This document shows, piece after piece, positions 16,395 through 59,801 of a stretch of DNA of 64,000 nt; position 1 is the stretch's first letter; the number at the start of each line of letters is the position of its first letter. Source of the DNA: Chiloscyllium plagiosum (taxonomy: Eukaryota); assembly GCF_004010195.1 (NCBI RefSeq), contig NC_057718.1, positions 50,174,450 through 50,238,449 of the forward strand, read 5' to 3'. The position numbers were made by a program, and so were the translations under genes. The notes under the pieces were generated by a model that was given only the letters and a program-made list of their open reading frames with translations, had not been told where the DNA came from and searched no databases.

Positions 16395-16469
16395 ATGTAT
16401 CTGAGATGGGGAAGATTTCCAAACGCATGTTGATCAATATGCACCAGAAGCTGTGCTTTATCAATTATT
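16395..16469 (-). CDS. fshr: Internal coding exon (exon-4 equivalent) of the same FSHR-like glycoprotein hormone receptor
   Basis: Minus strand: ...cttttgcag|A ATA ATT GAT AAA GCA...AGA TAC AT|gtaagg. 75 nt, phase 2/2, translating to [24 protein letters not shown], in frame with the 59727-59801 exon. Matches FSHR [24 protein letters not shown] as recalled. Confidence 0.88.
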
Positions 16470-16753
16470 CTGCAAAAGCAATAACAAGAAAGAGTGATTC
16501 ATTATTCTCAATTCTGTAAAGTGCTTAACACAAACTGTTAACGTGGCAGACATAAAATGAAACTGACTATATTGTAAATTCTGTTGCACAGTGACAACTG
16601 CTTATAGCGATTATAAAGTATGAAAGAGAGTGATTATTATGCATCAGGTTTCAGAATCTAAATGGTTGAGATTGGAGAAAATCTATGGATGATTACTTTT
16701 TTTTTGACAGCTTTCCCAACCCTGAAGCACCATTGACAATTTTAAAGCACGAT

Positions 16754-17815
16754 GGGCTGGAATTTCCAATTGCCAGACAACCATTAGTCCAGCATTGAGG
16801 AAAGTTTGCACATAGGAATTCTGCAGATTTCCCAGTCTAGCACATCCTGAAGGAATTGCCCAGGAAAATAAATTATTGAAATGGAATTTTCCACTGGCCA
16901 GTTTCTCCACATCTGAAACCCTCTGAAATTCTTAGTTCAAACTGAAGACTCCAGGTCGTTCTGAAGAAAGTGAGTAAAACTTGGGACAAGTTATACTATA
17001 ATGCATAGTCTGACTCCTAAGTAAATATTAAATAGATCCCATGCTTACAGCTACACCATTTGCAGACCCCTTATACAACCTCCTCATCATCCCCCCAGTG
17101 AGTTCCTTCACTCCTTTATCCCCCAACAGACCTAACCCAACATCTTTTTGCCCTTCCCAGTGGATCCTATCCTACATGCCTTCAGCTCACCCTGCCTGAC
17201 TCTACCACCCATTTGGTGCACCTGAGTCCAGCCCGCACCCCATCACCAGACCCAACCTGACCCCGTCTCATAAGCTGCTGGACCCAACACTCGCCACCAA
17301 CAACACACCCAAATATCATTTAATTTGCACTCTGGCATGTTTTCACTGATCAGCTTACTAGTTTCTCACTTTGCATCTTACCCACCGACACTCTAACTCT
17401 TTACTCAACTGGCATTCTATGCTGGCACCCGAACCCTTCTCCAGATACAGCCTGTCTCAGCTGGCACCCTACCACCTGGTCACATATTCCCCACTTCTGA
17501 CCTGGCACCCTATTCTCCCAGCACCTAACATCACACTTTTATGCTTATGGGTTGACAGCGGTTGTTAAAGTTGCTGTCAAAACATTTACATTTCAGAACA
17601 TGGAAGTGAAATGCTTTAGAAAAGGTGGCGTTGTTTGCTTTCTTCTGACACTTCTATGCCACAGAAGAACTTTCAGAATGGAAGTACGCCTTCACATTCC
17701 TGAGGTATTCCTGAATGAAATTTCCACCCTGAATTGCAGAATTGCCTTTTCTCATATGAAAGAAGGGATGCAATGGCAATCTGTGTGAGTGCCACTCCTT
17801 GGAAAATTGGAGCCT
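16754..17815. mobile_element. Possible non-autonomous Harbinger-like element
   Basis: Imperfect terminal inverted repeats gggctggaatttcc and ggaaaattggagcc around a C-rich non-coding interior. Confidence 0.4.
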
Positions 17816-18202
17816 TTAGTCAGACAAAGACACAAAATTCCTAGTTTGTACCATGACACAGAAATGTTACAGGTGAACCATTGATACATATCTCCTTCTT
17901 TAGATGAATAAACCTTCATTCACTTGCCGCTGTTCGATTCATATGATGAAATATTTTTTCTGTGTCTATATGTTCTGCAAGTTGGCAGCTGTGAAATTGC
18001 AGTTAGACAACTGAAGACTGTTAAATTTGAAGCACTACATTTTCCAAGGATTATACATTTGATTCTGTCTAGGAACAGGAGCAGGACACTGTTGAAGATT
18101 TTATTAGGTCACATGGTCAGTTCAAGGGTCAGTGAACAGCAATTAGTGATTAGTCAGTTCGCCAGGAGCAGTCAAAGATGAAAGCACCATACAAGTGAAG
18201 TA

Positions 18203-18421
18203 CAGTTTGTTCTTATATAATGCAATAATTCCTTTACCATGCGATCCCGCTTTATAAGAAAATCACATAATAGCAGCACCATTTAGACTAGTGAGGCTGG
18301 AATTGCCTTATAGCCACTACAGGTAAGGAAAATTTGTGTTCTACAAATAATGGCATAAACCCTTCAATCACATTATAGCCAATTCACGTTCAAGAAACGT
18401 GCATTATAGCAGAACAGATTG
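18203..18421. mobile_element. Tc1/mariner/pogo-type MITE with TA target duplication
   Basis: TA-cagtttgttcttatataatgca at the left end and tgcattatagcagaacagattg-TA at the right end (about 22-bp imperfect TIRs). Confidence 0.75.
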
Positions 18422-19032
18422 TACTATTGTTAGCTCGAAGGAGCTGGGGGTTCAGTGAAGCTCTGGGAGTTATTTAGCAAGTCAGACCACTTGGGGGCCA
18501 GAGAAACCTTTTGGGAGCTGATAATAGGGTTGAAGTTTCTGTAAGTTCTGTTTGCTACTGATGGACAGTGGGGCTCAAGGTATCCCCGAGCACTTAAAAG
18601 TTCAGTGAAGCTGAAAGGATGCTTTCTGCCAGAGTGCTGGCAGGTGGGTAACTGAAAGCCTGTGTGTGGTTGTGTGTTCATGAAGTTGGTAGTTGGACAA
18701 AGGCCTGCCCATGTGTAGGGGTACTCCATTCACAGTAGCTAGGGAGCTTGAATTCCAACGGTGATCAGATGCTAGAGTGCAGCTTTGTGTATCCAGTTGC
18801 TTACAGTCTCAGAAAATATTGAGCAACTTGGAGGTTGAGCAAGAGTTTAAGCAGTCTGGGTCAGTGCAGTGTTCGAGTTTCATAGGGTTTTGTGGCTCAT
18901 TGATTTTTCAGTGGGTTGCTGAGAAATTTGCGGGATGTAGCTTGGTTGAACTTCTTATTAATGTGCTGTTGATGATGTGTTCTTCTTCAGTTTGCCTGTT
19001 AATTTATATTTACTTCATGTTGATTAGTAATA

Positions 19033-19237
19033 ATGTGGAGGAGCTGGTGTTGGACTGGGGTGGACAAAGTTAAAAATCACACAACACCAGGTTATGTCCA
19101 ACAGGTTTATTTGGAAGCACTAGCTTTTGGAGCACTGCTCCTTCATTATCATCAGGTGATGAAGGAGCAGCGCTCTGAAAGCTAGTGCTTCCAAATAAAC
19201 CTGTTGGACCATAACCTGATGTTGTATGATTTTTAAC
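19033..19237. mobile_element. Penelope-derived fold-back insert (family B)
   Basis: Arms 19069-19146 and 19159-19237 with a degenerate hammerhead core. Duplication catgttgattagtaat/catattgactagtcat. Confidence 0.8.
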
Positions 19238-19254
19238 CATATTGACTAGTCATG

Positions 19255-20288
19255 GAGGCATCGAGATGTACAGCAAGGAAACAGAAACGTTTCAATGCTG
19301 ATCAGATATCCTAATCTAGTCCTACTTGCCAGCATTTGGCCCATATCCATCTTAAACCCTTCCTATTCAAATAGCCATCCTGTTGCATTTTAAATGTTGT
19401 AATTGTACCTGCCTCCACCACTTCCCTGGCAGCTCATTCCATACATGCACCACTGTCTTTATGAAGAAGTTGCCCTTTATGTCTCTTTTAAATCTATTCC
19501 CTCTCACCCTAAACCTATGCCCTCAAGTTCTGGACTCCCCTACCCGGGAGGAAGACTTTGTGTATTCACCCTATCCATGCCCCTCATGATTTCATATTCC
19601 CTCTCACCCTAAACCTAGCCCTCTAGTTCTGGACTCCCCTACCCGGGAGGAAAACTTTGTGTATTCACCCTATCCATGCCCCTCATGATTTCACAAACCT
19701 CTGTAAGGTCACCCCTCAGCCATTGACGCTCCAAGGAAAACAGCCCGTCTATTCAGGCTCACAGTATAGCTCAAGCCCTCCAACCCAGACAACATCCTTG
19801 TAAATCTTTTCTGAACCCTTTCAAGTTTCACAACATCCTTCCTGTAACAGAGAGACCAGAATTGCACACAATATTCCAAAAGTGGCCTAACCAATGTCCT
19901 CTACAGCCGCTACATGACCTCCCAACTTCTATAAACAACACACTGACCCATAAAGGCCAGCATACCAAATGCCTTCTTCACTATCCTATCTACCTGCAAC
20001 TCCACTTTCAAGGAACTTTGTACCTGCACTCCAAGGTCTCTTTGTTCAGCAACACTCTCCAGGACCTTATCACTAAGTATATAAGTCCTGCCTTGATTTG
20101 CATTTCCAAAATGCTGCACCCCACTTTTATATAAGTTAAACTCCAGCTGCCATTCCTTGGCCCATTAGCCCATCTGATCAACATCCCATTGTACTGTGAG
20201 GGCACTTTCTTGGCTGTCTCACCACACTTCTAAACTTGGTGTCATCTGCAAACTTACTAACCATACCTCCTATGTACACATCCAAAGA
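19255..20288 (-). mobile_element. CR1 LINE 3' fragment with an internal 100-bp tandem duplication
   Basis: ORFs 19709-19894(-) and 19910-20119(-) give the CR1 RT C-terminus. 19495-19594 is repeated at 19595-19693. Confidence 0.9.
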
Positions 20289-20313
20289 TACTGGATGTTA
20301 CAGTGTAAAATCT

Positions 20314-23300
20314 AGATGTGCACCCAACTCCAGCTCCTCAGAAACTGTGTTAGGGAACTGGAGCTGGAGCTGGATGAACTTTGAATCATTCCTGAGGTGG
20401 AGGGGGTTATTGAGAGGAGTTACAGGGGGTTAATCACACCTCAGGTACAAGAAAAAGGCAGATGAGTTCAGTCAGGGCACAGAAAGAGAACAGGCAGAAA
20501 GTGCAGGGATCCCCTGTGACCATTTTCCTCAATAACAAGTATACCATTTTGGATACTGATGGGGAGGAGCGACTTACCAGGCGTAAGCCATGGGGTACAG
20601 GTGTCTGCCACAGAGTCTGTCCCTGTTGCTCTGAAGGGCAGGGGAGAGAAGAGCAGAGCAGAGCATTAGTCATTGGGGACTCCATTGTTAGGGGAACAGA
20701 TAGGAGATTCTATGGGAACGGGAGAGATTCGCGATTGGTGTGCTGCCTTCCAGGTCCCGGGGTCCGTGTTTTTGGGATCCTTGAGGTGAGGGGGAGAAGC
20801 CCCAAGTTGTTGTCCACATAGACATTAACGTCAAAGGTAGGAAAAGGGATGGGGATTTAAGGCAGAAATTCAGGGAGCTAGGGTGGAAGCTTAGAGCTAG
20901 AACGAACAGAGTTGTTATCTCTGGTTGGTTACCCATGCCACGTACTTGTGAGGCGAGGAATAGGGAGAGAAAGAGTAGTTGAACATGTGACTACAGGGAT
21001 AGTGCAGGAAGGAGGGATTCAATTACTTGGATAATTGAGGCTTATTCCGGGGTAGGTGGGACCTCTACAAACAGGATGATCTACACTTGAACCAGATGGG
21101 TACTAATAACCTGGGGGAGGGGGGAGGAATTTGCTAATGCTCTTCAGGAGGGTTTAAACTAATTCATTATGTGGATGGGAACCTAAATTGTAGTTCCATT
21201 GTCCAGGAGGTTGAGAGAAGTGAGGTCAGAAATAATGTTTCAAGGTTGCAAGACTGCACTGACAATCAGGAAGGCGGTTTGGAGTGTGTCTACTTCAACG
21301 CCAGGAGCACCTGGAATAAGGTGGGTGAACTGGCAACATGGGTCGGTACCTGGGACTTTGATGTTGTGGCTGTTTCAGAGACATGGATAGAGCAGGGACA
21401 GGAATGATTGTTGCAGGTTCCAGGATTTAGATGTTTCAGTAAGAACAGAGAAGATGGTAAAAGAGGGGGAAGTTTGGCATTGATACTCAAGGATAGGATT
21501 ATGGTGGCAGAAAGGACATTTGAGGACTCGTCTACCGAGGTGATATGGGCTAAGGTTAGAAACAGGAAAGGAGAGGTCACATTGTTGGGCCTCTGAATAC
21601 TTCCAGAGATGTAGAGGAAAGGATAGCAAAAATGATTCTCAATAGGAGGGAGAGCAATAAGATAGTTGTTATGGGGAACTTTAACTTCCTCAATATTGAT
21701 TGGAAGTACTATAGTTCGAGTACTTTAGATGGGTCAGTTTTTGTCCAATGTGTGCTTGAGGGTTTCTTGACACAGTATGTAGACAGGTTAACAAGAGGCT
21801 AGGCCACATTTGATTTGGTACTGGGTAATGAACAAGGGCAGGTGTTAGATTAGGAGGTAGGTGAGCACTTTGATGACAGGGACACCAATTCGGTTCTGTT
21901 TACTTTAGCGAAGGAAAGGGATAGGTATATACCACAGGGAAAGAGTTATAGCTGGGGGAAAGGCAATTATGATGAGATTAGGCAAGATTTAGGATGCAAA
22001 GGTTGGGGAAGGAAACTGCAGTGGATGGGCACAATTGAAATGCTGAGCTTATTCAAGGAACAGCTACTGCGAGTCCTTGATAAGTGTGTACCGGTTAGGT
22101 AGGAAGGAAGTGGTCAAGCGATGGAGCCAAGGTTTGAGATGCAATGTTTCAGTTAGGGTGCTTGAAAGTTACAAGTTAGCCAGGAAAGACCTAAAGAGAG
22201 AGGTAAGAAGAGTCAGGAGGGGACATGAGAAATCATTGGCAGATGGGATTAAGGAAAACCCTAAGCTTTCTATCGGTATATCAGGAATAAAAGAATGACT
22301 AGAGTAAGATTAGGGCTAATCAAGGACAGTAGTGGGAAGTTGTGAATGGAGTCTGAGGAGTTAGGAGACGTGCTAAATGAATATTTTTCATCAGTACTCA
22401 CGCTGAAAAAGACAATATTGTCAAAGAGAATATTGAGATACAGGCTACTAGACTAGTTGGGATTGAGGTTCACATGGAGGAGGTTTTAACAATTCTGGAA
22501 AGTGTGAAAATAGATAAGTCCCCTGGGCCAGATGGGATTCATCCTAGGATTCTCTGGGAAGTCAGGGAGGAGATTGCACAGCCTTTGGCTTTGATCTTTA
22601 TGTCATCATTGTCTACAGGAATAGTGCTAGAAGACTGGAGGACAGCAAATGTTGTCACCTTGTTCAAGAGGGGAGTTGAGACAATACTGGTAATTGTAGA
22701 CTAGTGAGCCTTCCTTCGGCTGTGGGTAAAGTGTTGGAAAAGGTTACAAGAGATACGACTTATAATAATCTAGAAAGGAATAAGTTGATTAGAGATAGTC
22801 AACACAATTTTGTGAAGGGTAAGTCATGCTTCATAAACCTTATTTAGTTCTTTGAGAAGGTGACCAAACAGGTCGATGAGGGGAATGCAGTTGATGTAGT
22901 GTATATGGATTTCAGTAAGACGTGTGATAAGGTTCCCCACGGTTGGCTATTGCACAAAATACAGAGGCATGGGATTGAAGGTGGTTTAGCAGTTTAGATC
23001 AGAAATTGGCTAGCTGAAAGAAGGCAGAGGGTGGTAGTTGATGGGAAATGTTCATCCTGGAGTTCAGTTACTAGTGGTGTACTGCAAGGATCTGTTTTGG
23101 GGCCACTGCTGTTTGTTATTTTTAAAAATTACCTGGATGAGTGTGAAGAAGAATGAGTTCATATATTTGCGAATGACATTAAGGTTGGTGGAATTGTGGA
23201 TAGTGCCGAAGGATGTTGCAGGTTACAAAGGGACATAGATAAGCTGCAGCCCTGGGCTGAGAAGTGTCAAATGGAATTTAATGCAGAAAAGTGTGAGTTG

Positions 23301-24065
23301 ATTCACTTTGGAAGGAGCAACAGAAATAAAGAGTTCTGGGCTAATGGTGAGATTCTTGGTAGTGTGGTTGAGCTGAGAGATCTCAGTGTCCAGGTACATA
23401 GTCCCTTGAAATTTGCCACTCAGGTTGATAGGGTTGTTAAGAAGGCATACTGTGGTTAGCTTTTATTGACAGAGGGATTGAGTTTTGGAGTCCTGAGGTC
23501 TGTTGCAGCTGTACAAAACTCTGGTGCAGCCATACTTGGATTATTGCATAGTCTGGTCACCGCATTACAGGGAAGGATGTGGAAGTGTTGGAAAGAGTTT
23601 AGAGGAGATTTACTAGGATGGGTTGCCTGGTATGGAGGGAAGATCTTATGAGGAAAGGCTGAGGGGCTTGAGGCTATTTTTGTTTGAGAGAAGAAGGTTG
23701 AGGTGTAATTTAATTGAGACATATAAGATTATCAGAGGGTTAGATAGGGTGGACAGTGAGAGCCTTTTTCCTCAGATGGTAATGGTAAGGGGACATAGCT
23801 TTAAATTAAAGGGTGATGAATATAGGACAGATGTCAGAGGTAGTTTCTCTACACAGAGGGTAGTAGGGCCATGGAACACCCTGCCTGCAACAGTAGTAGA
23901 CTCGCCAACGTTAAGGGCACTTAAATGGTCACTGGATAAATATATGGATGAAAATGGAATAGTGTAGGCTATATGGGCTTCAGATTGGTTTCACAGGTCG
24001 GCACAACATCGAGGGCTGAAGGGCCTGTACTGCGCTGTAATGTTCTATGTTCTCCATATTCTATA
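20314..24065 (+). mobile_element. CR1 LINE, near full length (mid-ORF1 to 3' tail), multiply inactivated
   Basis: LVIGDSIVRGTDRRF, CVYFNARS, VSETW, KSPGPDGIHPR, RT pieces and a gttctatgttc tail; many stops and frameshifts. Confidence 0.92.
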
Positions 24066-26163
24066 ATATATTTGTGATTGTTTATCAGTCTGTTTTCTTC
24101 CACTTGTTTCAAAATTGTGGAAAAGTATGACATTATTCTTTTAGTAATTATTTAGTACAGTTTGACCATAAATAGTTCATGTCAATATAGTTCTTCTGGG
24201 TTGCTATCTCATTAGCATGAATTAAATTCTGTCTTCCAAATATATGAGGATAATGTTGTACAATGTAATAGCAACATGTCAAACTAATTCAACATAAAAA
24301 CAAAACAAAACAAAAATTCCAAAATATTTTATGTTGAAGAAATGCAAGTGAATATTGTAAATGTATGCTTAGGTCCTGTCACATTAAAATTACTATTCCA
24401 GATCACAGAGCAGACGCATAAATTATGTACGATAAGCATACAATACCTACCTATTGGTGCAAATCTGATACCACTTGCTTCATATATTTATTTAACATCT
24501 TCAGTGATTAAACATACAGAAGATGTTTCACAGAGATATGAGTAAAAGAAACAATGAGGCTGAGTCATCAGGTGAAACAAAGGGATGGGTGAAAGAGAAA
24601 CAATCAGAGGAATAACACAGGTAATGTGTGAAGGCAGTTATCAGAATCATTGTTAAATGGTAAGAATCTTTAAAAATAATATTTTTGGAATGCATCAATT
24701 GCATTATTTGCTGGTTAAAATAGCACAAGATAAAATGTAGTCACCTCAGACCACTGCACAAGGACAACTGAATAGAATCTTGGAGCTGAATCTTACATTT
24801 ATTTTTGCCGAGGTGTCAGTTGCATTGGGTTTTCTGAAGGTATTTTCACAATTAGTTTTCGAATGATCTCTGGCCATATCTTACCAGACTTCATTGTTAA
24901 CTGTCTACCCTATCCATATAGTATTGACTCGTCCAAACTCGCCCAACATTACCACATCATTCCTGGAACACTCGCCACTCCTCAAGCTATCTGCCCAAAG
25001 ACTGGCATCTTTGGTACCTATGCCATCTTTAAAAGGCTGCTGTGCATCCTGACAAGTATGGTAATGTGCTGCTGCCCCTCACCAGCAATATAATCACATA
25101 GCAGCCACGAAGCCACACTGCTCTCAGCACATGGCTGACACTACCTCGCACACTCAACCCCATTCTCTCATCCTCGTCACTGTTTAAGCCAGGCTGCATA
25201 GTTTATCTATTCTGAGTTATGTCCCATTGAAACACCCTCTCTAAGTCACCATTACTTTCTCACCAATGCCCACGGAAGACCCACATTATGTTATCGTCCA
25301 GTAGGGGAACGTCATATCTCGGCAAGCAGGTGGATAATTCCAACTATGAGCTTTATTTACAGCAACCAAAGAAACAAAACTAACAGAGGCTGCAGTCTGT
25401 CTTCGAAATGCAAGCCAAATGCATTCATCATGAGCAATAACTATTCTATATTCTCTCATAGTTTGTAACGTCCAGTTCTGATCAACTGGAACTGGGTATC
25501 AATCAGGTCCAGTCTGAGTTGCAGCACCCACCGCAGCTGAGCTTTGTCAGACACAAGGAAAGATTCCTTCTCCTCAATATCCTCATCACCATCCTCCTCA
25601 GAATACTGTTCCCATTCTCCCAGTTCCTCAGCATCCAGCACCTTGTCTTATTGTCTGCTCCGGTTGTACAGAGCACAGCATGTTCGGATGATGCAGCACA
25701 TTCTGTCTGGATTAAAATGCAGTGTGACCCCAGGCTGCTCCAAATGTGGAACCACAGCTTCCGGATTCCTATTGTCTGCTCTATCATTGTTCTGGTCAAA
25801 AGTATGCTAATTGAGTGAGCATGACATTACATCAAGAAAGGACTACATGCTGCACTTTGACCCCACTTCCCACCCCAGACCCACGTCACCAAGTCAATTT
25901 ATCACTGAGTTCAGTACAGTCCACTTACTTACAAGACCTGCAATGGAGTTTGTCCCCTCATCACAGAGCAGCCTTGAAAGTTAGCATGTGCTTCCTTTAA
26001 AGTAATTGCTGCTAACATCTCCAACACTGAAATGTAAATGTTTGATTTGCCAACACCAATGGCATGGTATAGATTGTCCTTGAGCTTTAAGCATATTCAC
26101 TCTGCATGCATTACAAATGGGTGAAGACATGTTTGGAAATTAAATGTAGCTGCAGTTTGTAAA

Positions 26164-26256
26164 GTTATAAAGTGTGGCACTGGAAAAAACACAGCAGGTC
26201 AGGCAGCATCTGAGGAGCAAGAGACTCGACATTTCGAGGAGGGCCCTTCCTCGGGA
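26164..26256. mobile_element. Penelope terminal-repeat fragment (single arm)
   Basis: cagcaggtcaggcagcatctgaggagc motif with an exact duplication ctgcagtttgtaaa (26150, 26257). Confidence 0.75.
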
Positions 26257-27129
26257 CTGCAGTTTGTAAACACGTTCCATGTCTTCTCCCCTAACATTCA
26301 GCACGTGGTTTCCCACAATTCTGCCCACCAAACTGACACTGACTGCACCAAATAAAAAACAAAAGAATGCTGGAAATCAGAATCAAAAGCATAAGCTGTT
26401 GGAAAAACTCAGCAGGTCTGGCAGCATCTGTGCAGGGAAATCAGAGTTAGCGTTTTAGATTGAGTGACCCTTCCTCCCTTTCAAGAGTGACACACTGGAC
26501 ACCATCAGCACCAAATTGTGCTTTGTCACCAGGTACTCTCCCACAGCCTCCATATACCCTTTTACTTTGCACCAGCCTGACAGCTGATGCTGACCCATCC
26601 ATTATATAGAGATTTGCCACACTGAATTTTGCAATCAACAATCGTCTCTGCCTCCTGAGCCCAGCATTACACCTCAATGATTCCCACTCTGGTCCTTTGT
26701 ACTCCCCTATTGAGACCAATGTGTGGTGACTCCAAAGAAATCCCCTCCTTCAATCTATCATGCCCACCAATGTTGTTTCCCTCACCACACTATGCTTTAA
26801 GTTTCACTTTCATACTAACCTTAACATAATTCTCTTTAGCCCAGCCTTTGCCACCTCACCCCATGTTGCCCTTGGAGATTCCACTTTTTATCTTCCTAAA
26901 TGATCAACATACAGACCACCAGCATTATATATGCCCGATACCTCTGGGCAATGTTGACAAAAGCCCCTATGCATGACTGATCAGACCTTGACCTCTGTGT
27001 TTGCAGCTCCCTGAAGAATTATCTCCACGAAGTTACATGGCTTCCATGATAGCTCACGATGGCCCTGTAGGACTAACCACTGCCTTGACTGTGTGTCTGG
27101 ACAGAGAGCATGTCAATAAGATAGCAATG

Positions 27130-27335
27130 GGGAGAAAGTGAGGACTGCAGATGCTGCAGATCAGAGCTGATAATGTGTTGCTGGAAAAGCGCAGCAGGTC
27201 AGGCAGCATCCAAGGAGCAGGAGANNNNNNNNNNNNNNNNNNNNNNNNNNNNNNNNNNNNNNNNNNNNNNNNNTCTCCTGCTCCTTGGATGCTGCCTGAC
27301 CTGCTGCGCTTTTCCAGCAACACATTTTCAGCTTG
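27130..27335. mobile_element. Young Penelope-derived fold-back insert (family A) with an N-gap in the loop
   Basis: Arms are near-perfect reverse complements either side of Ns 27225-27273. Exact duplication aataagatagcaatg (27115, 27336). Confidence 0.85.
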
Positions 27336-28126: not shown

Positions 28127-28274
28127 AGGAGAAAGTGAGGATTGCAAATGCTGGAAAGTCAGAGTCAGAAAGTGAGGTGCCATTCCTGATTAAGCGCTTA
28201 TGCCCGAAATGTTGACTCTCCTGTTCCTCGGATGCTGTCTGGCCTGCTGTGCTTTTCCTGTGTCATACTTTTCA
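28127..28274. mobile_element. Penelope-derived insert (family A, decayed)
   Basis: ggagaaagtgaggattgc...cctgattaagcgcttatgcccgaaa with an exact duplication accttaaaatggta (28113, 28275). Confidence 0.8.
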
Positions 28275-48500: not shown

Positions 48501-49369
48501 CAAATGAATAGGTGCAATCTCTTGTGTGCAAGGACACAAGTAAGCATATTTTAAAAACTTTACTAAGAATATTTACTAAGAATTTGTTAACTATATACTA
48601 GGAAATGGTTTGCTGCACCTTTTAAAGGTCATTTTAGATTATTTAAATGTGTGTTTATCACAGGTAATGAATTGATATTGTGCTTAAAATTAACGTTTAC
48701 TGTAACATTAATTTATTACTCAAACTGTGCAGTATCCATTTTTATACTCATCAAGGTATGTTATTTTAGGCAAATTATTTTCCTGAAAAATCACATTTCA
48801 CCCAAGTCAGAAACTCCTCCCTAACCTCTCACAGCTGTTTATCATTTTGCTTGTGATGTTGTGAAATATTCAATTCACTTTTTGATCAATGTCAAAGTCG
48901 AGTATATTGTTTGCTAAGTGTCTCTGCCTATGATTCCAAATATTTCTATGTCGAAATAATTTTGAGCCTGTTTGGGAATCTTTAATAGATATGGTCAGGT
49001 TGGTTTTCAGTTAAAACAATGCCATTGCTACAACTTTGGAAACTTCCAAGATGTTCAGAAAAGTTAGTAAACATTACTTCAAAACAAAACTGTAGTGACG
49101 GTATGTATCATTCATGAAGAAAAAAAAACTGTTTTTTGGATTGCTTCTGTTATAAGAGAGTCAAATAGTTGAATCATTTAATAAATGAATGGGTACTTTT
49201 CAACAGATTCCAGATTATATTTGATCATCTGAAGCTTACTTCCTCTGTATCCTTTCTGCATATTCTCAAAGAAACAAAATCCATGCGTGGTTCATCATTG
49301 TAAATTTTCTCTTCATATTTCCTTGTAAAATCTAGTTGTAGTAACTTTTAAAAAAAATGACAATCTTAT

Positions 49370-49810
49370 TTTTTCTCTGGAGCATAGGAGGTTGACGGCT
49401 GAAGTTACTGAGGTTTTATAGCATTATGTGGGACATACATAAGATGAATGACAAAGGTCTTTTCCTGAAGGCGTGGAAGTTTAAAACTAGGGGGCATATA
49501 TTTAAAGTGAGAGGAGAATGATTTAAAAAGGACATGAGGGGCAAATTTCTTTTACACAGAGAGTGGTTTGCATGTAGAATAAGCTGCCAGAGAAAGTGGT
49601 AGATAGAGGCACAATCATAACGTTTTGAAGACATTTGGGTAAGTTCACAAATAGGAAAGATTTGGAGGGATATGTATTAAATGCAGCAATAAAGCTTAAA
49701 CGTAAATCTAAAATCTAAAAATGCAGGCAGATGGGGCCAGTTTGTTTTTGGTGGGCATGGACTGCTTGGACTGAAGAGTCTGTTTCCGTGCTGTCTGACC
49801 CTATGGCTTA
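49370..49810 (+). mobile_element. CR1 LINE 3' fragment
   Basis: aaaactagggggcatatatttaaagtgagagg...gactgaagagtctgtttccgtgctgt. Confidence 0.8.
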
Positions 49811-50806
49811 ATGGGAGAATGGCAGAGAACATTGGAACTCATGGGCAAAAAATGACTCATGGCAGTCGCATTAATGTGTGAGTATTATGCAAAAATGCTC
49901 GAGCAAAACATAAAATTCCATGATTTGGGGTTTGAAGTATACGCCATGTAAAAATGACACTCAAAAATACAAAACGACACATACAGGAGGAACACACATT
50001 TGTAGATACAGAAAACAGATTCTTCAATACACTGTAGAGTAAAATACAGCAAATTATCTTCTAAAACTAAACAAATATGACTGAAATTGTCATTGAATGT
50101 GAAAATTTAGACTTATTTAGAGAACTCAAAATCTGGAGGTTAGAATTTATTTTGATATTTTCTAATCAACCGGTTTAGAAATGTTATTACATATCTCTAG
50201 AGCAGGTAGGACCTGAATGTTATTCTCCTGGGTCAGAGGTAGGGACATCACCACTATGCCACAAAAGCCTGTTACAATTTATGTTATAACCGCAACAAAC
50301 GGCCTGCAACTGACATCATTCACTTGACAATGTAAGTTGCGGACCTGAAACTTACAAAGCAGATTCTATATGCTGTAGCCTATTTTGCTAAAACAACTGT
50401 TATCCACACACAAAAAAACTTGCTTATGCAAAGTCAAACATCAATCTGGCAAAAGGCAAATACCAGAGTCACCAAAATGGTTTAAGTCCAGAACTTCCAG
50501 TTTCCTTGCTCTTATTCTCACAATCTGTGCAGAGGTTAGACATGGATGTGTTGGTATTTTTTGTATATGGTCCTTATAAACCACATACAGCAACAGTTTC
50601 AGGGCTGATCCCCATTCTATACTGAACTAATTTCATCCAAGCAAATGGTACTACATGGGCCCTCAGCACACTGAGATTAGAAGGGAATAGTAGGCAGGAT
50701 ATATTCACTGCCTTGTGACTTGTGTAAAAAGGGGATTCAAGAAAAGGGATGGATGGAATGTGACTATGTTGTTATCAAAGGATGAATATTAGCAACTCAC
50801 AAGGTA

Positions 50807-50940
50807 CTGGATTAGTGGTGCTGGAAGAACACAGCAGTTCAGGCAGTATCCAAGGAGCTTCCTGAACTGCTGTGCTCTTCCAGCACCACTAATCCAGAAT
50901 CTGGTTTCCAGCATCTGCAGTCATTGTTTTTACCTCGTTG
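50807..50940. mobile_element. Penelope-derived fold-back insert (family C)
   Basis: ctggattagtggtgctggaagaacacagcagttcagg followed by its reverse complement. Exact duplication actcacaaggta (50795, 50941). Confidence 0.8.
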
Positions 50941-51729
50941 ACTCACAAGGTAGACAGTGGAACTTATACCATCAGCTTTTTGAACAGAAATTAAATATTT
51001 ATGAACAGCAGAGTAGAGGTTAATGAAAATCAAGATAAAGAGAACTGGAATGTCTTTAAGGCAGGAAGCACTTGAAACATAAAAACAAAGACAAAGAAAT
51101 CACTCACGATAAATAGTGGGAAGGTTGAAAGTTGCTTTATCATGTGATTTACATTATTACTGTCACCAGCACAATTAAATAACGGTCCTTAGTAACGCAG
51201 GCTTTGGGTGTCTATACGTGCTCCTTCTGAGGCTGTTTGCTCCTTATCTTTACAAAAAAAATTTCTACTCCTGACGTATTGTCACACTGCTTTATTTACA
51301 TCTCCACATTGCACAAGGGAACTGAATTTGATCACTTGCAATATACCCTTCTCTTTACATGCTTTTTCTTGTTTGATGCCTTCTCTCAATCCCTCTTACT
51401 GATTCTAGAGCCACGTCATCAGTTACATCATCACTCATTTGTATAATTATACTACCTCCCCCTTCAAAGTTTTTTTCTACTTGGTTTACATTATTTTTAT
51501 TCAACTTAAAAATTCTTTGTAATTATTTACATCACCATGAACAATATTATTATCACCTTCCATCTCAACATCCTAATTTCATTGGTCAAGGCTATCTAGA
51601 AATCAGACTAGAAATCCTGACTTGGTCATTTGATTTCAACATGGAGGTGATTATTCTGGAAGTGTTGTTTAACATGGTGCTCTACCTGATGTAGTTTAGG
51701 TACATCCATCCCATATCCCTATGATAATC

Positions 51730-52282
51730 ACACAGTTTTGGGCTGTATCTCAGGTAGGATGTACTGACCCTGGAATGTGTTCAGAGGAAGTTCACAAGAA
51801 TGGTTCCAGGAATGAAGAGCTTAACATATGACAAACATTTGCAGACTCTGGGTCTATACTCATTGGAGTTTAGAAGCATGAGGGGGGATCAAACTGAAAA
51901 TTACAGAATACTGAATGGCCTTGACAGAGTGGATGTTAGGAAGATGTTTCCATTGGTAGGAGAAACTCGTACTCCAGGGCACAGCCTTAGAGTAAAGGGA
52001 AGACCTTTTAGAATGGAGAAAAGGAGACATTTTTTCAGACCGAGAGTGGTAAATCTATGGAATTCATTGCCATAGAAGGCAATGGATGCTAGGTCATTGA
52101 GTATATTTAAGACAGAGATAGGTAGGTTCTTAATTGTCAAGGGGATCAAGGGTTATGGGGAGAAAGCGGGAGAATGGGGTTGAGACATTTATCAGCCATG
52201 ATTGAATAGCGAAGCAGACTTGATGGGCTGAATGGCCTAATTTCTGCTCTCATGTCTGATGGTCTTATGATCTTATGGTCTT
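51730..52282 (+). mobile_element. CR1 LINE 3' fragment
   Basis: ORF 51800-52075 LGLYSLEFR...GHSLRVKG...RVVNLWNSLP; (ggtcttat)n tail. Confidence 0.85.
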
Positions 52283-52559
52283 ACTCCTTGCCTTGAGAAA
52301 AATCATACATTCCTGTTTCTCCTGAATTTTCCTTTAGCCGCTCTAACAATATACGATTTTCATTTATTGGTTTCTCTGATGACGGTGGCTTCTACCTTCT
52401 TGCCCCTTAACCAAAATTTCTGATGTGACTTTTCGGTTGTCAACTCTATGTCGAGAGCTGTACCCCCTCTGCAATGCTGTTTCTCCATTTGTTCTACCTT
52501 CTTATGGTCTTCAGAGGTTATGTTTAGCTTGAGGTTCCAGACCAAAATGGGACATCCAT

Positions 52560-54160
52560 TTTTTTTTATGCCTTCCAATTAATAATTTCTCTGGTGAGTA
52601 TCCAACATTCAATGATATTTCTCTGTAATGAAGTAGAGCTAGTTCTCAGTCTGGAATCTGTAACTCCATGGTTTTGACTGCCCCCTCTGCATCTCTGCTG
52701 ATAACTATTTCCATCATGACTTTCCTGAAATCCTCATTCACAAATTGAGGTCCATTGTTCGATACTTAACCTGCGAAACTGCATATTACTAAGATTCATT
52801 TCAATGCTCTGATAACTGAGTCAGCTGTGGTTACAAGATGATTTTTTAATTCAGTTATGCAACTTACTAATGCACCTTCCTCTTGAAATCAAACAAATCT
52901 GTTGTTAGCCTTTCTCATGGCTTGTTCAAAAATCTTGATAAAATAATTGGCTCTATACTGTATATGGCATGCATGTTGAAATGTAATCCTGTACATCTTT
53001 GAAATGCCTTGTCAGTAAATTGCTGGTTGTGTTATTGCTCTGTGCTCCATAATATCTAGATATTCTCTAAAGAGTTTCTGTTTCTGGAGAATTTTTCTTC
53101 ACATTGACTGCGGTATAAATATTCCATGGCCAAAAACCAATAAAACTTCCAATGTTGGCAACTGTTATGTCTGCTTATGCTTTCTTTTTCAGCGCACTGC
53201 CAACTGGACTATACTTCAACCACCCTTGCACACACAGTTGTTTGACCTCTGCTCATTCCTGATTAGATTTTGAGCTGCACAAATTTCTCCATCAGTTGCC
53301 AGTGTATTAATTATGAACATGGAATAAAACATTATGTTTTCTTCAAGAATAAAATCCTCTTTTACTGCTTGATCTATTATTGTACTTGAGAGAGTATTGG
53401 ACATTACTTGTGCCTTGCTTAGAAACATAAACAATGATATTGTTATATTTCATTTGTCTAAGCCTGAATTTTTGTATTCATTCAGGCATTTTTGAGATTT
53501 ATTTTAATTCCAATAATATTACAAAAAACTTATGATCTATCTTGATTCCTAGAATTTCAATTCTGTGAAAGAGTTTGCAGACTTTTATCATCATCATGAA
53601 ATATTACCATTGACCTTTCTATGGTTGGATATCTCTGTTCAGTCTCTGTTAAAGCTTTTGATATAAAATAAACACATTTTTGTATTCAATTCATTTTCAT
53701 TTAGATAAGCCCTGCTTCTAAACAGATAGAGGATACATTTACAGCTATAATAGTGAACAAAACATGAATGCAATGTGCCAGGACATTAGTTGAAAGTAAC
53801 TTCTGCTTCTCAGCTGCCGTCTGTTCCTAAATCTATGACCATTGCTGGGCTTCCTTAAAAAACCCTGTTAATGGTTGAATAAGACTGGCTAAGTTGCAGA
53901 TAAACTTTCCTATTTAATTCACAATGTCCAAAAATTATTGTACATCGTTTATGCACATCAGTGCCAGTAAATCTCTGGTGGCCTTTCAATTCCTTGAATG
54001 CACCATAATGCCTTGTTCTTGGATTATGTGTCCAAGAAATATAATCATTCTAGAGAATTAATATTTCACCTTTAGTGTGCATTCTTGAATTGTGTAGTGC
54101 CCTTAGCATATCCCTGATACCCTGGCCATGTTCCTCTTTCATGCACTTGAATGCTATCCA
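52560..54160 (-). pseudogene. Highly decayed conventional Gypsy pol fossil (RT then integrase)
   Basis: IFLGHIIQEQGI and FLDIVN*IGKFICNLASLIQPLT (RT end, about 53850-54045); VSNNGPQFVNEDF (integrase core, about 52725-52765). Confidence 0.6.
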
Positions 54161-55072
54161 CAGGCTGATTGGGTGTAACTGCTCCTTCGTATATGAGCCT
54201 GAAGATGTTTTATATTCCTGAAAGTACTGCTTCCAGCGCTCCCACTTCTGGCCTCAGTGTAGTGTAATGGATTACATAGTTTTCCTTTTTGAACTCTAAA
54301 CTGGAATAGTTCAGTGCTGCTCCGTAGCTCAAATACCAAAAGAGTTTTGGAACTTGGAAAAAAATCAAGTGGTGCACAACTTTTAGTTTTTTTTGGCGAA
54401 GTGCCAGTTACATTGAGTTTTTTGAAGGGTTTCCCTGTGTCAGACCTGGTAAGAGTTTTCACTGGATCTTACAAAATCTGTCTCATTATCTACCTATCAC
54501 AAACCAGTGACACTCCCTTTAATCTCATTCTCGTCCACTTTAATAAGTACCTTTCATGAAACCACTCTCCAGAGCGCAGATATCCCAGAACTGACCAACA
54601 TCGCTGGTGCTATCTTAGAAGCCTGTTGTACACCTGGATAAGCACTATTAGTCTGGAGCTGCCCTGCACAGGTCCTGACATTTGCCTCAGTTATGGCACA
54701 CAAGGGAAACTGGCTGCCCCATCTTGTGGCCATGGATCTGGAGCCCCTGCTGGACAGGATGGCATGAAGCAGGGATGTTGCCTCCTTCCAGGACCAAAGG
54801 ATGCCAGAACAACAGATCATGCTAAGCTGGTTTGAAGTATACACTTAGGGCAGTGTTCTCTCAGCTGTCTGGAGGAATACAGACAATGTTGGAAGACTGC
54901 CAGTGATCTTCTCCACTTTTCCAACTTTCATGAACTAGAACGTTATCCATAGGCTGATGCGGTGTAACTGCTCCTTCATATATGAGCCTGAAGCTGTTTT
55001 ATATCCCCGAAAGTACTGCCCTCAGTGCTCCCATTTCTGGTCTCAGTGTAGTGTAAGGGATTACATAGTTTT
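54136..55072 (+). repeat. Pair of about 148-bp direct repeats (54136-54283 and 54925-55072)
   Basis: ctttcatg...tatcca.aggctgat..ggtgtaactgctccttc.tatatgagcctgaag...gattacatagtttt occurs twice with scattered mismatches. Confidence 0.85.
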
Positions 55073-55387
55073 ACATAGGATTATATAGTCACTATCTTCT
55101 CGGTAAGACCTCACATTTACACTATCTCTGCTGCCTTATCCACTTCCCACCAAGGCTCAAGCTCTACCATTCTCACAACTGTCTGTACCATCTTCCCTCC
55201 CTCACTCTTATCCACCACAAGCTCCCAACATCACTAATTCTGCATGTCCTCTGTACTGCCTACCCATTCACCCAGAGCACTGCTCTACCTGCACCAAGTA
55301 TTATCCATTTTTATCTTCCTTCATACTTGACTCCCTTTCATTCCAGGACAAGAAAGGTGCCCGTAATAAGGCAAAAAGAATCACATT

Positions 55388-55705
55388 TTGTTTGGATTAG
55401 ATTCCCCACAGCATGAAACTGGCCCCTTCGGCCCAATAAGTCCACAACAACCTTCTGAAGAGGAACCCACTCAGGCCCATTTCCCTCTGAATAATGCATC
55501 TAACACTACGGGCAATTTAGAATGTCCAATTCACCTGACCTGCACATCTTTGGACTGTGGGAGGAAGGTGGAGCACTCAGAGGAAACCCACACAGACACA
55601 GGGAGAATATGCAAACTCCACAAAGACAGTCGCCCAAGGTTGGAATCAAACCTAGGTCCCTGGTGCTGTGAGGCAGCAGTGCTAACCACTGAGCCACAGT
55701 GGGCT
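55388..55705 (-). mobile_element. HE1-type SINE
   Basis: Reverse complement of the HE1 head, V-domain and tail. Confidence 0.88.
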
Positions 55706-56850
55706 GCCTGACATTCTCCCATTATGTGGACAACATCCTGACACTGAACACCATCGACTGTGTCCAAACCCCTGGACTGTTGTCAGAGGCTGCCCTTGAT
55801 TCACAGTGCCAAGATCTGTGAGTGAAGGCTATCTCCCTTTGCAAGGACAGCTGCCATGAATAACAAGCTTCCTTCCTTAGTGCCTGTGCTAAACTGCACA
55901 GCAGTATAGCAGTACTGTGAACCTAGTATTGCTGGTTAAGGGGGGGCAAGCAGAAAGGTAAGTCAAGGCAATGCAAAGCAGGGATGCAGGGAGCATGCAG
56001 GAAGGCACAGAGTGAGTGAGCACAGTGACAGCAAGTGGAAAGGTAGCCTGGTCCAGGCCATGAGCTGAGTCCATGCCCCTGAGCACACAGTGTTCTTGCA
56101 GCAGCATTTCAATGACAGTTGCAATTGCACCCTGAGATGCAGCATTGTAATGCGCTGTAAATGAATTGGAGATGTGCCATGAGAGTTCTTAAATGCTGCC
56201 ACATGTCAGATACCAATGTACCTTTGGGTACAGGAGCATGCCCTGAGTTGACAGTACCTGGTGTCCTACATAGAGATACTTTAGGAGCAAGCAACAAGCT
56301 GAGGTTATCAAGTACCTGCTCTTGTCAAAAATTCTCAATGTCTACATTGGCACATTTGGTAAGATGGAAAGCTGAATATTAATGATGTGAGTTGTGCAAT
56401 TAATAGGGTGAGTAACAAGCAATCATCCCTGTCATTTGGCAACTTGCCTCTGCCTGCTGAGAAATTCACCTCACCACTCAGCAAATACAAAAGAGATGCT
56501 GCAGATTGATTAGATTAGATTACTAATTAGATGCTGCAGATTGCTCCCAATGCAAGATAGGTCTTCCTCATACTGACTCCCTTACTCTCTTTGAACCCCT
56601 CAACATTCAACTAACCCCTGACTCCACAATTAACCATGAATCCCTGACTACCCTCTAACCTGACTACCCCACCTGACCCTTCAACTACCCTCACATGACA
56701 ACTGCCGAAAATGACCTGGTTAGTTGTTATCCTAGCCTTATCATACTCCAAAACACCTACCCAGTTCACAAATCTGCCACCCTGCCTGCATCACCAGTCT
56801 GCCATCCTGCCACCTGCAATCCTACTTACAATTGATTCATCCACCAATCT

Positions 56851-57125
56851 GGAAATGTGTTGCTGGAAAAGTGCAGCAGGTCAGGCAGCATCCAGGGAAC
56901 AGGAGAATCGACGTTTCGGGCATAAGCCCTTCTTCAGGAATCGGCTTATGCCCGAAACGAGAAGCTCTTCAGCCACATTCTCAAACAGACTCGCTACCAC
57001 AGCCACATCTCCTTCCTCAGCACCTGCCTACATTCCTGAAGAAGGGCTTATGCCCGAAACGTCTATTCTCCTGTTCCCTGGATGCTGCCTGACCTGCAGC
57101 GCTTTTCCAGCAACACATTTCCAGC
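56851..57125. mobile_element. Penelope-derived fold-back insert (family A) with an ORF fragment in the loop
   Basis: Hammerhead cores on both strands (about 56910-56937 minus, 57036-57063 plus). Exact duplication tcatccaccaatct (56837, 57126). Confidence 0.88.
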
Positions 57126-57418
57126 TCATCCACCAATCTACCAGTTACTAAGCTGCCACGCCACTACTTAACTTATCAGCGAGCCTGCCTATCTATCACT
57201 CTAACCCCACCCCCATCATCCAATCTACTGTTACACATGTGCTACCCAAACCTCCTACCCATCTAACACCCTTGCGACCCTACTCTCTTACCTTCCCTCT
57301 AGCTTTCCAAAGAAACTTTGGAACATTCAAACACTTTGGCAGGCATTGGTATGTTTTGAAAGGTTCTCCACAAGAGGAATTGATCAGAATGATTGGAAGC
57401 AGGTCAGTGTGTGGCTTT

Positions 57419-58146
57419 TGTTACAACATAGGGTAAGCCATTCTGCTAATTTAAACCAAACACACAGAAAAGTTCACCTCGGCTCATAGTCTGTAAAAGT
57501 ATGAGTAACAAAGAACAACCAAATCCCACTATTTAAAGAAAAAAAACAATTTGTTTTTTAACTCCAAGAAAAAAAGAAAACATTAACAACTATCTACACT
57601 GTAAACCTCCTTTGTCTTAACAATTTATCTACATCCCACCCTACAATACTATACTGATCCGATAAAACCTCTGATTAAGCTTTACAAAAAAATTCAAATT
57701 TCAAATTTCAGTTGTGTCGATTGACCTCTGCATCTTCCTCTGTAGATTCTTATGGGTCTTTTCTTCAGTCTTCTGCTGCACAGATTTTATATAAACAGAT
57801 ACCTTTCAGACAGCGGTTCTGCAAGCAGTCTGCGTTTATTGGTGCTCTTTGCCACTCTGGCTAACTTTTCAAAATGCCCCATATTTACATCCAAAAACAT
57901 TGGATTGTCTCATTGGTTTAATGTTGTCAAGACAGTAAAATTCAAATTCGATTGGACTTTTGTATCTTGGGGCTAATTTAAACTGATCAGCCAAATTCAA
58001 ATTTGTTGTGCACTATAGCAACAGCACAGCTATTTGTTTCACAGCCAAATGTTACATTTTTAATTTTTTTCAGCACACACTCTGTGTTTGTTAAGCCAGC
58101 TTTCACACTCTCTTAAAGGTACAGTACATGCCTACACCTTCATAAA
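57419..58146 (-). mobile_element. Solo LTR, same family as 28459-32664
   Basis: Reverse-complement match to the split LTR; 4-bp TSD CTTT (57415, 58147). Confidence 0.85.
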
Positions 58147-59040
58147 CTTTTGTTTGAACAAGATGAAAGATGGAGAGTGCAATTTTCTGGGAGGCAGGCA
58201 ATAAGACAAGTTTCCCTAAAGTGATTAAACTTTCGCTGGTAAGTTCATAGAACTTTTCAGGTGGGTTAAACTTTTATTTCATTCATGAACATGTCATGAA
58301 CATTTAGTAACAGTACACATCCTAGTGGAATTATGTTCAGGGTTGTAATTTTGTTAGCCAATAATTTGAAAGATGTCAGTTCACAAGCAGACTACACATA
58401 TGCATGTATTTGATTCTCCAGTGAGTACAAACATCTTCTGTTACTTGCCTCCTTCAAAACTGAGTCACTTCCTTATGTAAATGTTTACAGTGTGGGAGTG
58501 AAGCCCTTCAACGTTGATCAACTCTTGAGAAGTCCCAGTCATATGTAGTATGGCTTGTGGTTTCTAAAAACACTTGCAGTGTGAGAAGTGAAGTCTGACT
58601 TGGCCAACAAGCCCACCCAAGAGAGACAGATACATTGGCTGATGCCAGCAAACCTGACCAGGGAAAGCAAGCGAGACTGAACTCAAAAAACCATCTTTGT
58701 CCCATGCAAGCTGCTGGTGAAAAGATATCAGAGCTCTACATCCTCCTGGTTGTGATGAAAGATCAGAAACTTAATGGTGCTTGAGTTGCTGAATGTTGTA
58801 GCTCCTTTAATGTTTTACTTGTGATCATTTGTAGGTGTTTGAAAGGCAGTATCACTATGGTACCAGTAGTGCTATATTGGTAGGTTTAACAAGGTTACAG
58901 AAATAACTTGCCCATGAGGTATCTGAGGGAGATGCCTGGCACCCTATCTCCCCCGAAGTTTTGCAGTGCTGCACGTTTGCAACCTTACAATGTTAACTCA
59001 ATCTTATAGGAGCATGAAACATTCACTAGAAAATGGCATG

Positions 59041-59278
59041 TGAAATTACTCCACAGATACTGATATCCTGTCACCAAGTCACTCCTCATTTACATGTAGA
59101 GAGTCCTTGACACTGGTCTAGTTCCCTCAGAGCCAGCTCTCAGAGAGAACAGCATGTCTGGCACTCCAGTTTATACCTGTACCAGCCAGGGCTCCCTAAC
59201 TGGACCAGGTTAACAGCCCCAATCAGGGAACTCATATTCTATGGGGTCCACTTAGCTGACCTTGTTACAATCACCACA
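59041..59278 (-). mobile_element. Short solo LTR (238 bp)
   Basis: TG...CA ends, 5-bp TSD GCATG (59036, 59279); second copy at 43884-44642. Confidence 0.88.
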
Positions 59279-59726
59279 GCATGTACTCTGGAAAAGCACA
59301 GCTTGGTTTCTGTCATCTCTTGGGCTGAATGGGGATGATGAGCAGAGGCCGAATGATTCTCCTGAGCTGCTGAGAGTGCAGTGCTATCCGGGTGCCTTTT
59401 AAATATGGCATCCAAATGTTGGCACCCGGAATTATGTGTCCGTAAAATTTGACATTTTACCCACACATGAATATGTATTGAATTGGGAAAATTGTAATTG
59501 TGTGGGGAAACTCACCCTTCCCACCAAACTCCTCACCTCCATCCCAACAGAAGTCCCTCCCACCTTTTGGGCCCACGATGATGCCCAGCCTCAGAAGAGA
59601 AAATTCTGCGCAGGGTTTCTGACTCTGATTGAAAGATCATAAGCAAATGAACAAACATTAACAGTGAATGAAAAAAGAAACACATTCTTTTTCTCAAACA
59701 AAAGATTGCAAAGTTAATTTACTCAC

Positions 59727-59801
59727 ATTTCATTAAGACTGGGTAGATTGACAAAGGTATTTTCTTCAATATTCTCCAGAATATCATTCTGTAGTAGCCA
59801 A
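59727..59801 (-). CDS. fshr: Internal coding exon (exon-3 equivalent) of a glycoprotein hormone receptor, FSHR-like LRR ectodomain
   Basis: Minus strand: ...tttttgcaattgccag|T TGG CTA CTA CAG AAT GAT...AAT GAA AT|gtgagt. 75 nt, phase 2/2, translating to [24 protein letters not shown](I). Matches human FSHR [25 protein letters not shown] as recalled. The exon is well supported; the orthology (symbol) is tentative. Confidence 0.88.

Follow-up and report, generated by a model that had tools for sequence, protein, structure and literature searches.

FSH (alpha/FSH-beta) binds the concave leucine-rich repeat (LRR) face of its receptor, FSHR; the hinge relays the signal, and the 7TM domain raises cAMP via Gs in gonadal somatic cells. 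FSHR has ten coding exons and LHR (LHCGR) has eleven. In the elephant shark (Callorhinchus milii) the fshr orthologue comprises 10 exons, and a single fshr was identified by genome search in two chondrichthyans (PMC4536197). A preprint (bioRxiv 10.64898/2026.04.10.717848) describes a CRE response of cloudy catshark FSHR when exposed to extract of the pituitary ventral lobe; recombinant FSH was also produced for the catshark FSHR assay. A passage of PMC13052469 places the expression of S. canicula fshr in spermatogonia and Sertoli cells.

The window, which is the whole 64,000 nt stretch of Chiloscyllium plagiosum DNA analysed here, almost certainly falls within the fshr gene, probably single-copy, of the Chiloscyllium bamboo shark, which encodes a receptor of 740 aa that has a 7TM domain of the rhodopsin type. 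On the minus strand it contains two 75-nt AG/GT-bounded exons, phase 2 at both ends, which join in frame to give a 49-residue peptide, as the first-pass annotation had described. The features are as follows.

59802..64000, minus strand: 3′ part of intron 2, with exons 1 and 2 outside the window (tblastn)
59727..59801, minus strand: coding exon 3 of fshr, 75 nt and phase 2 at both ends, covering XP_072436953.1 residues 79-102 and split-codon parts
16470..59726, minus strand: fshr intron 3 (43,257 nt, GT..AG), transposon-rich, spliced out exactly in the contigs of runs X1 and X3
16395..16469, minus strand: coding exon 4 of fshr, 75 nt and phase 2 at both ends, covering XP_072436953.1 residues 104-127
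1..16394, minus strand: 5′ part of intron 4, with exon 5 outside the window (contig 3′ loose ends)

The number given to exon 3 is taken from the 75-nt third exon of elephant shark fshr (PMC4536197 S1 Table), in which exon 4 is likewise 75 nt. Intron 3 is ~7.6 kb in the elephant shark, whereas it is 43.3 kb in the Chiloscyllium window, where 28% of it consists of repeats that are also present elsewhere in the window.

The 49-residue peptide is identical throughout (49/49) to residues 79-127 of the C. punctatum RefSeq 'FSHR-like' protein XP_072436953.1. The start of exon 5 in the contigs also matches this gene (XP_072436953.1 to XP_072436961.1; older model GCC26740.1), and no protein-level difference was found over the compared stretch. 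Among 11 Chiloscyllium FSHR-like models, eight contain both exons, one contains exon 3 only, and two begin at exon 5; the C. plagiosum RefSeq model XP_043551842.1 begins at exon 5. The exons had been called hidden, which is true of the open reading frame track only, since RefSeq models both of them in C. punctatum. On the XP_072436953.1-type RefSeq protein, Pfam matches to LRR_8, GnHR_trans, and 7tm_1 are above the cut-off, and this identical protein has the LRR ectodomain, hinge, and rhodopsin-type 7TM domain of the family; the window itself contains the two LRR exons only, joined to the 7TM exon by the RefSeq model alone. At 75 nt each and phase 2/2, they are typical of the short LRR exons of glycoprotein hormone receptors (69-81 nt, one repeat each), and encode two consecutive repeats of the hormone-binding ectodomain. 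The earlier assignment to the glycoprotein hormone receptors, as an FSHR-type member with an LRR in each exon, was right. These are exons 3 and 4 of an already annotated, ordinary fshr, not of a new receptor. As a discovery the locus has little value, the gene being annotated and its catshark and elephant shark orthologues having already been studied.

Orthology, copy number, and linkage with lhcgr

A bootstrapped tree of 30 proteins (a subset of 51 rows; LG+G4, rooted on TSHR, with lamprey and invertebrate sequences absent) placed seven chondrichthyan FSHR-like and eight bony FSHR proteins in one clade (100/98), mirrored by a clade of five shark or ray and seven bony LHRs (100/99). The gene groups with the elephant shark and catshark FSHRs (100/100), sister to bony-vertebrate FSHR, and a mixture-model quick tree of the 51 rows agrees on the FSHR grouping (SH-aLRT 98). 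A 100/100 branch separates the TSHR rows from the rest, and 17-19 of the 49 residues are identical to TSHR. AU tests, the alternatives for which were chosen after the tree was known, rejected both an LHR grouping (p 0.004) and placement outside FSHR+LHR (p 0.009). The gene thus sits with bony FSHR and groups with neither LHR nor TSHR. Whole-length BLAST identity barely discriminates, at 58% for FSHR (the bat sequence has this value) against 55-56% for LHR; identity is 89% to S. torazame FSHR and 75% to Callorhinchus FSHR.

Protein searches, in which the best 120 of 215, of 837, and of 550 matches were considered, gave one FSHR-type locus per species among the matches listed. Among these matches, FSHR-type and LHR-type proteins are on sequences of identical length in all 15 elasmobranch species that have both on chromosome-scale records, including C. 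punctatum, where both are on the sequence of length 117,090,713, and TSHR is on a sequence of another length in 5/5 species. Equal length indicates the same chromosome, from which adjacency does not follow; fshr and lhcgr appear to be on one chromosome in 15 elasmobranch species. This co-location bears on the age of the linkage, a question left open in PMC4536197.

A history of duplication and loss inside the FSHR lineage would be compatible with the tree but is purely hypothetical. It is very improbable that the gene is a fourth, chondrichthyan-only glycoprotein hormone receptor with its own ligand, such as TSH2 or thyrostimulin, the true FSHR being elsewhere or lost. Such a paralog would fit the stem of the chondrichthyan FSHR group, which at 0.34 exceeds the stems of the other three gonadotropin-receptor groups (shark LHR 0.26, bony FSHR 0.13), as well as the change of all five mammalian specificity residues discussed below. 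Cartilaginous fish also retain TSH2 as an additional beta subunit but have no second TSHR, according to PMC8522476, and a further shark gene could exist beyond the matches listed. However, the clade with bony FSHR and the AU rejection of the basal position argue against it, as do the lack of a second FSHR-type locus in any species among the matches listed and the single fshr of the two chondrichthyan genome searches. Likewise, elephant shark TSH2 activated TSHR in PMC8522476. The first-pass annotation had considered a paralog distinct from FSHR and with another ligand; this is not supported, and the gene is an FSHR orthologue by the tree and the AU test, with LHR on an equally long sequence.

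The probability that the gene is instead the shark LHR is smaller still. Some RefSeq isoforms are named 'LHCGR-like' (in C. punctatum, Carcharodon, S. canicula, Stegostoma, Pristiophorus, and skates), and Y55 is shared with mammalian LHR, but a separate LHR exists in C. punctatum (XP_072436261.1; 55% identical overall, 24/49 over the stretch), the older model of which groups in the LHR clade, and LHR grouping fails the AU test. The tree and the existence of that LHR gene already rule this reading out.

Exon borders and splicing

The acceptors of both exons are CAG, and the donors are GTGAGT or GTAAGG. As a chance control, both strands of the window were scanned for open symmetric phase-2 AG..GT segments; 27 were found, five of them of 63-81 nt, and of these five only exons 3 and 4 are LRR-like. 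When the exons were queried singly against the PDB, FSHR was the best match for each, in consecutive register (1xwd_C 62-83 and 86-108), with weak E-values of 0.045 and 0.031. In Pfam, exon 4 matched LRR_8 below the cut-off (E 0.014). No further fshr exon was found in the window by a strict exon scan, motif scans, and tblastn of the 11 Chiloscyllium FSHR-like models.

Two other borders were considered. One was an AG lying 12-13 nt into exon 3, which as the true acceptor would delete W-L-L-Q; it was rejected because the frame would shift and orthologues retain W-L-L-Q. The intron stretch 59636-59547 was rejected as an exon, as it has no preceding AG.

The junction of exons 3 and 4, which the first-pass annotation had proposed seeking in RNA-seq reads, is present exactly in contigs from two of three contig runs (X1 and X3; these and X5 are classed as RNA by guess only). 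The X1 and X3 contigs span exactly 16394-16469 with no differences and then run into 59727-59756 (30/30 letters), for which the next best placement has 10 mismatches. A contig that lacks 43 kb at exact AG/GT borders is a spliced product. The X5 contig ends at 16466, before the joint. In all three runs the 3′ loose ends read as the beginning of the RefSeq model's exon 5; they have no match within the window (best place 10/30 mismatches). It is confirmed that the two exons are real and that they are spliced together and on to exon 5.

That the segments resemble exons by chance, or are what is left of a pseudogene, is extremely unlikely. The weak single-exon scores against PDB and Pfam could be cited for it, as could the absence of reads on the exons in the single-cell raw-read run X10, although the ~2% of that run that was read is too little to serve as a test. 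Against it, the full-length models are open, 38-46 of the 49 residues are retained in the other 15 fully covered elasmobranch species, and the junction contigs already refute it.

Residues on the hormone-binding face

Over the stretch, 26 of the 49 residues are identical to mammalian FSHR (PDB 1xwd, 4ay9, 8i2g), counted by hand on the alignment to a PDB chain that is presumably human; the same count had been given in the first-pass annotation. Shark FSHR retains K104, D153, D224, and the hinge tyrosine 335, and differs from the mammalian receptor by L55Y, E76W, S78L, R101I, E103D, K179N, and I222V. W76 and L78 (mammalian FSHR numbering) are encoded by exon 3, and I101 and D103 by exon 4, so the reported differences at positions 76, 78, 101, and 103 are correct. 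Of those given in the first-pass annotation as contact or specificity residues, E76 and R101 are named in a passage of the review PMC6281744, and E103 is absent from that passage. All five mammalian specificity residues given there (L55, E76, R101, K179, and I222) differ, leaving none of the mammalian-type binding face (0/5) retained.

The substitutions are common to nearly all of the sharks and rays examined. Among 18 chondrichthyan species, 17 have W76 and all have L78, whereas S or T occupies position 78 in 37 of 40 other receptor rows. Both S. torazame and S. canicula have W76/L78/I101/D103; Callorhinchus FSHR differs, with M76, L101, and F55. Novelty falls, because the peptide matches an annotated FSHR, orthology holds, and the substitutions are clade-wide. 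It had been allowed that a single FSHR orthologue next to LHCGR, with substitutions shared by other sharks, would remove it, and the findings agree with this, the single locus being so among the matches listed and direct adjacency to lhcgr excepted.

The binding surface had also been called remodelled. It does differ from that of mammals, but the direction of change was partly wrong, as R101 is confined to five lobe-finned or tetrapod FSHR rows among the 58 rows examined. Neither E76 nor R101 is present in any of seven ray-finned fish FSHRs, so it is the human state that is restricted to a lineage. Ray-finned FSHRs have K54 and T126 in several rows and V222 in 7/7 in common with sharks, whereas they retain S/T78 and K/R179; their hinge is shorter, according to part of PMC6826172. 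L55, E76, R101, K179, and I222 thus define the mammalian surface rather than FSHR.

What remains is a predicted clade-wide hydrophobic binding face of Y55, W76, L78, I101, and N179. The value of the alignment is in giving hormone-facing residues that are fixed in sharks and rays, and in showing that R101 occurs, within the examined rows, in lobe-finned fish and tetrapods only. These would be old, fixed differences suited to shark FSH, with no sign of a new ligand. A possible but rather doubtful extension is that the fixed, more hydrophobic shark and ray face (Y55, W76, L78, I101, R152, and the TSHR-like N179), as opposed to drift, sets a different or broader ligand range, of which the reported activation of catshark FSHR by single-chain thyrostimulin would be an example. 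If that were so, selectivity based on E76 and R101 would be a lobe-finned specialisation.

Splicing of fshr exons 3 and 4

Two short exons of fshr lie on the minus strand of the window:

59801-59727, minus strand: fshr exon 3, 75 nt, CAG acceptor, GTGAGT donor, phase 2 at both ends
16469-16395, minus strand: fshr exon 4, 75 nt, CAG acceptor, GTAAGG donor, phase 2 at both ends

This exon pair and its in-frame join of 49 residues were called in the first-pass annotation and are supported here, as is the identity to FSHR at 26 of the 49 residues (hand count, PDB FSHR alignment). A both-strand scan of the window identified 27 open symmetric phase-2 candidates with reasonable splice signals, five of which are 63-81 nt; among these five, only exons 3 and 4 are LRR-like. 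When each exon was searched alone against the PDB, FSHR was the best match, at 1xwd_C 62-83 for exon 3 (E 0.045) and 86-108 for exon 4 (E 0.031), in consecutive register. A search of the exon-3 stretch against 1.84 billion representatives returned six matches, the first and third being RefSeq 'FSHR-like' proteins of Chiloscyllium punctatum and Rhincodon typus; the remaining four have 33-48 % identity, and the one inspected is a multi-LRR protein. The 49 residues exactly match residues 79-127 of XP_072436953.1 (P0264), the full-length C. punctatum isoform of 740 aa, which contains LRR_8, GnHR_trans, and 7tm_1 domains.

Both exons are present in eight of 11 Chiloscyllium FSHR-like models, one has exon 3 only, and two start at exon 5; the C. 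plagiosum RefSeq model is without exons 3 and 4. No further fshr exons were mapped when these 11 models were compared with the window. In the elephant shark, fshr exons 3 and 4 are likewise 75 nt (PMC4536197 S1 Table). The models and these exon lengths therefore place the whole window inside a single gene, running in gene order from the last part of intron 2 through exon 3, intron 3, and exon 4 into the first part of intron 4. The protein identity suggests a Chiloscyllium shark, or a near relative, as the source.

Four of the 21 listed runs were compared with window positions 16100-16800. Runs X1, X3, and X5, assembled contigs presumed to be RNA and bearing an organism code unlike that of the DNA runs, each have one contig that spans the exon 4 region with no differences and no flanking intron. 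The X1 and X3 contigs continue into 30 letters that exactly match window positions 59727-59756 (the next best place has 10 mismatches), so intron 3, 43,257 nt long, has been spliced out at the expected boundaries. The X5 contig stops at 16466, with the exon 3-exon 4 joint outside its reach. At their other end, all three contigs run into sequence that the window lacks; translated, it gives the beginning of the RefSeq model's next exon. From X10, a raw single-cell run, no reads were placed in the approximately 2 % sampled, which is too little to count as a test.

Orthology and linkage to lhcgr

Three protein searches (best 120 of 215, 837, and 550 matches) supplied bony-vertebrate references and the FSHR-like, LHR, and TSHR proteins of sharks and rays. 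A quick mixture-model tree search over 51 rows placed the 13 chondrichthyan FSHR-like proteins as the sister group of 11 bony FSHRs (SH-aLRT 98). In a 30-row subset tree with bootstraps and a TSHR root, the chondrichthyan and bony FSHR clade has support of 100/98, mirrored by a clade of shark and bony LHR (100/99). AU tests rejected placement of the gene with LHR (p 0.004) or outside both FSHR and LHR (p 0.009); these alternatives were chosen after the tree was seen, and the rows cover receptors of cartilaginous fish and bony vertebrates. The FSHR clade includes Callorhinchus FSHR, at 741 aa the length reported by Maugars and Dufour (PMC4536197), where elephant shark and little skate are each given one fshr and one lhcgr. 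The gene is a spliced, conserved FSHR orthologue. A separate receptor paralog, raised in the first-pass annotation as a possible novelty, is highly improbable; the exon call was correct and careful, and the gene was already annotated and studied.

For C. punctatum, a distinct LHR (XP_072436261.1) is recorded on a 117,090,713-nt sequence, equal in length to the one carrying its FSHR-like gene. Equal sequence lengths for FSHR and LHR recur in every one of the 15 elasmobranch species whose chromosome-scale records include both proteins (C. punctatum, C. plagiosum, Hemiscyllium, Mustelus, Cetorhinus, Carcharodon, S. torazame, Heterodontus, Heptranchias, Pristis, Hemitrygon, Narcine, Rhinoraja, Leucoraja, and Amblyraja), equal length being a proxy for the same chromosome that is silent on adjacency, and some proteins being assigned via cluster or search rank rather than tree. 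TSHR is on a sequence of different length in 5/5 species. The two genes are on separate scaffolds in an older fragmented C. punctatum assembly and also in the elephant-shark assembly (PMC4536197). The equal-length sequences in 15 species suggest that the linkage is older than the split between cartilaginous and bony fish, a question that PMC4536197 does not settle.

Hormone-facing residues and ligand range

Residues were numbered via a 695-aa bat FSHR bearing L55, E76, R101, K179, and I222, the specificity determinants named in a passage of PMC6281744. Of the four positions given in the first-pass annotation as contact or specificity residues (E76, S78, R101, and E103), E76 and R101 are among those named, and E103 is absent from that passage. 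Across the 18 chondrichthyan species aligned, L78 is universal, W76 (M in Callorhinchus), D103, Y55, and N179 are each present in 17, and I101 in 16. All exceptions besides Callorhinchus come from a truncated whale-shark model, and the alignment leaves out five models without these exons (Hemiscyllium, Heptranchias, Pristis, Mobula birostris, and C. plagiosum). The changes are therefore clade-wide, which, direct adjacency to lhcgr apart, refutes the novelty on the terms set in the first-pass annotation; the binding surface proposed there as remodelled is shared across chondrichthyans.

Neither E76 nor R101 is found in ray-finned FSHRs (0/7 for each; the Echeneis row is unsure, with an extra repeat), and both are present in all five lobe-finned and tetrapod FSHR rows. 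Because R101 is confined to these five of 58 rows, I101 would not represent the loss of an ancestral arginine. Peculiar to chondrichthyan FSHR are W76, L78, Y55, R152, and N179; position 78 is S/T in 37 of 40 other rows, and position 179 is K or R in 12/12 bony FSHRs and N in 4/4 TSHRs. K104, D153, D224, and the hinge tyrosine are conserved in chondrichthyan FSHR.

In glycoprotein hormone receptors, the concave LRR face binds the hormone, and the signal passes through the hinge to the 7TM domain, which is coupled to Gs and cAMP. Pituitary ventral-lobe extract is reported to elicit a CRE response through cloudy-catshark FSHR, with higher doses needed than for LHR (bioRxiv 10.64898/2026.04.10.717848), and expression of fshr in S. 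canicula is reported from spermatogonia and Sertoli cells (PMC13052469). According to a review, the elephant-shark GPA2/GPB5 dimer binds none of its receptors (PMC8522476). Permissiveness is frequent in fish gonadotropin receptors (PMC6826172). The shark binding face would be the product of coevolution with shark FSH, and its selectivity may be lower. That its fixed hydrophobic character alters the ligand range is possible, and rather unlikely.

Gene models and repeats

In RefSeq, several sharks and skates have isoforms of this FSHR gene labelled 'LHCGR-like', and exons 1-4 are lacking from a number of models, among them those of C. plagiosum, Heptranchias, and Mobula birostris; name-based surveys would therefore miscount shark receptors. 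RefSeq models (P0011, P0263, P0020, and others) also skip single LRR exons in-frame, as symmetric phase-2 exons permit in these predicted isoforms: exon 2 in C. punctatum isoform X2, and exon 4 in C. punctatum isoform X3 and a Mobula isoform.

Approximately 90 nt inside intron 3 (59636-59547, minus strand), 24/30 residues match the last exon of XP_048457276.1 (P0003), a truncated whale-shark model. There is no AG acceptor here and there are no repeat copies in the window. Rhincodon has another model, of 558 aa, on a sequence equal in length to that bearing XP_048457276.1. This is probably orthologous intron sequence taken up by a split whale-shark gene model.

Runs of N at 27225-27273 and 30260-30412 (202 bases in total) are within intron 3 and leave the exons untouched. 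Neither exon 3 nor exon 4 overlaps a repeat with copies elsewhere in the window. Mobile-element remnants and repeats of the window are as follows:

3598-6838, plus strand: broken LINE element whose endonuclease and reverse transcriptase occupy different open frames
34722-38824, minus strand: intron 3, decayed element resembling an LTR retrotransposon (SCAN, integrase zinc-binding, and RNase H-like domains)
39032-39136: 53-nt tandem, two near-perfect copies, near the LTR-like element
19495-19693: 99-nt-unit tandem, two copies, 97 % matches
13120-13495 and 12907-13052: inverted repeats in intron 4

The LINE element, presumably CR1-type, has an OSK-like domain below the cut-off (E 9.5e-6), and similar RT-like fragments were seen by eye near 2021-2545, 22381-23967, 30644-31892, 51758-52075, and 63094-63546. 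One intron 4 inverted repeat has 138-nt arms that are 93 % complementary and stand 100 nt apart; the other has 59-nt arms, 88 % complementary, that resemble a short interspersed repeat recurring in the window.
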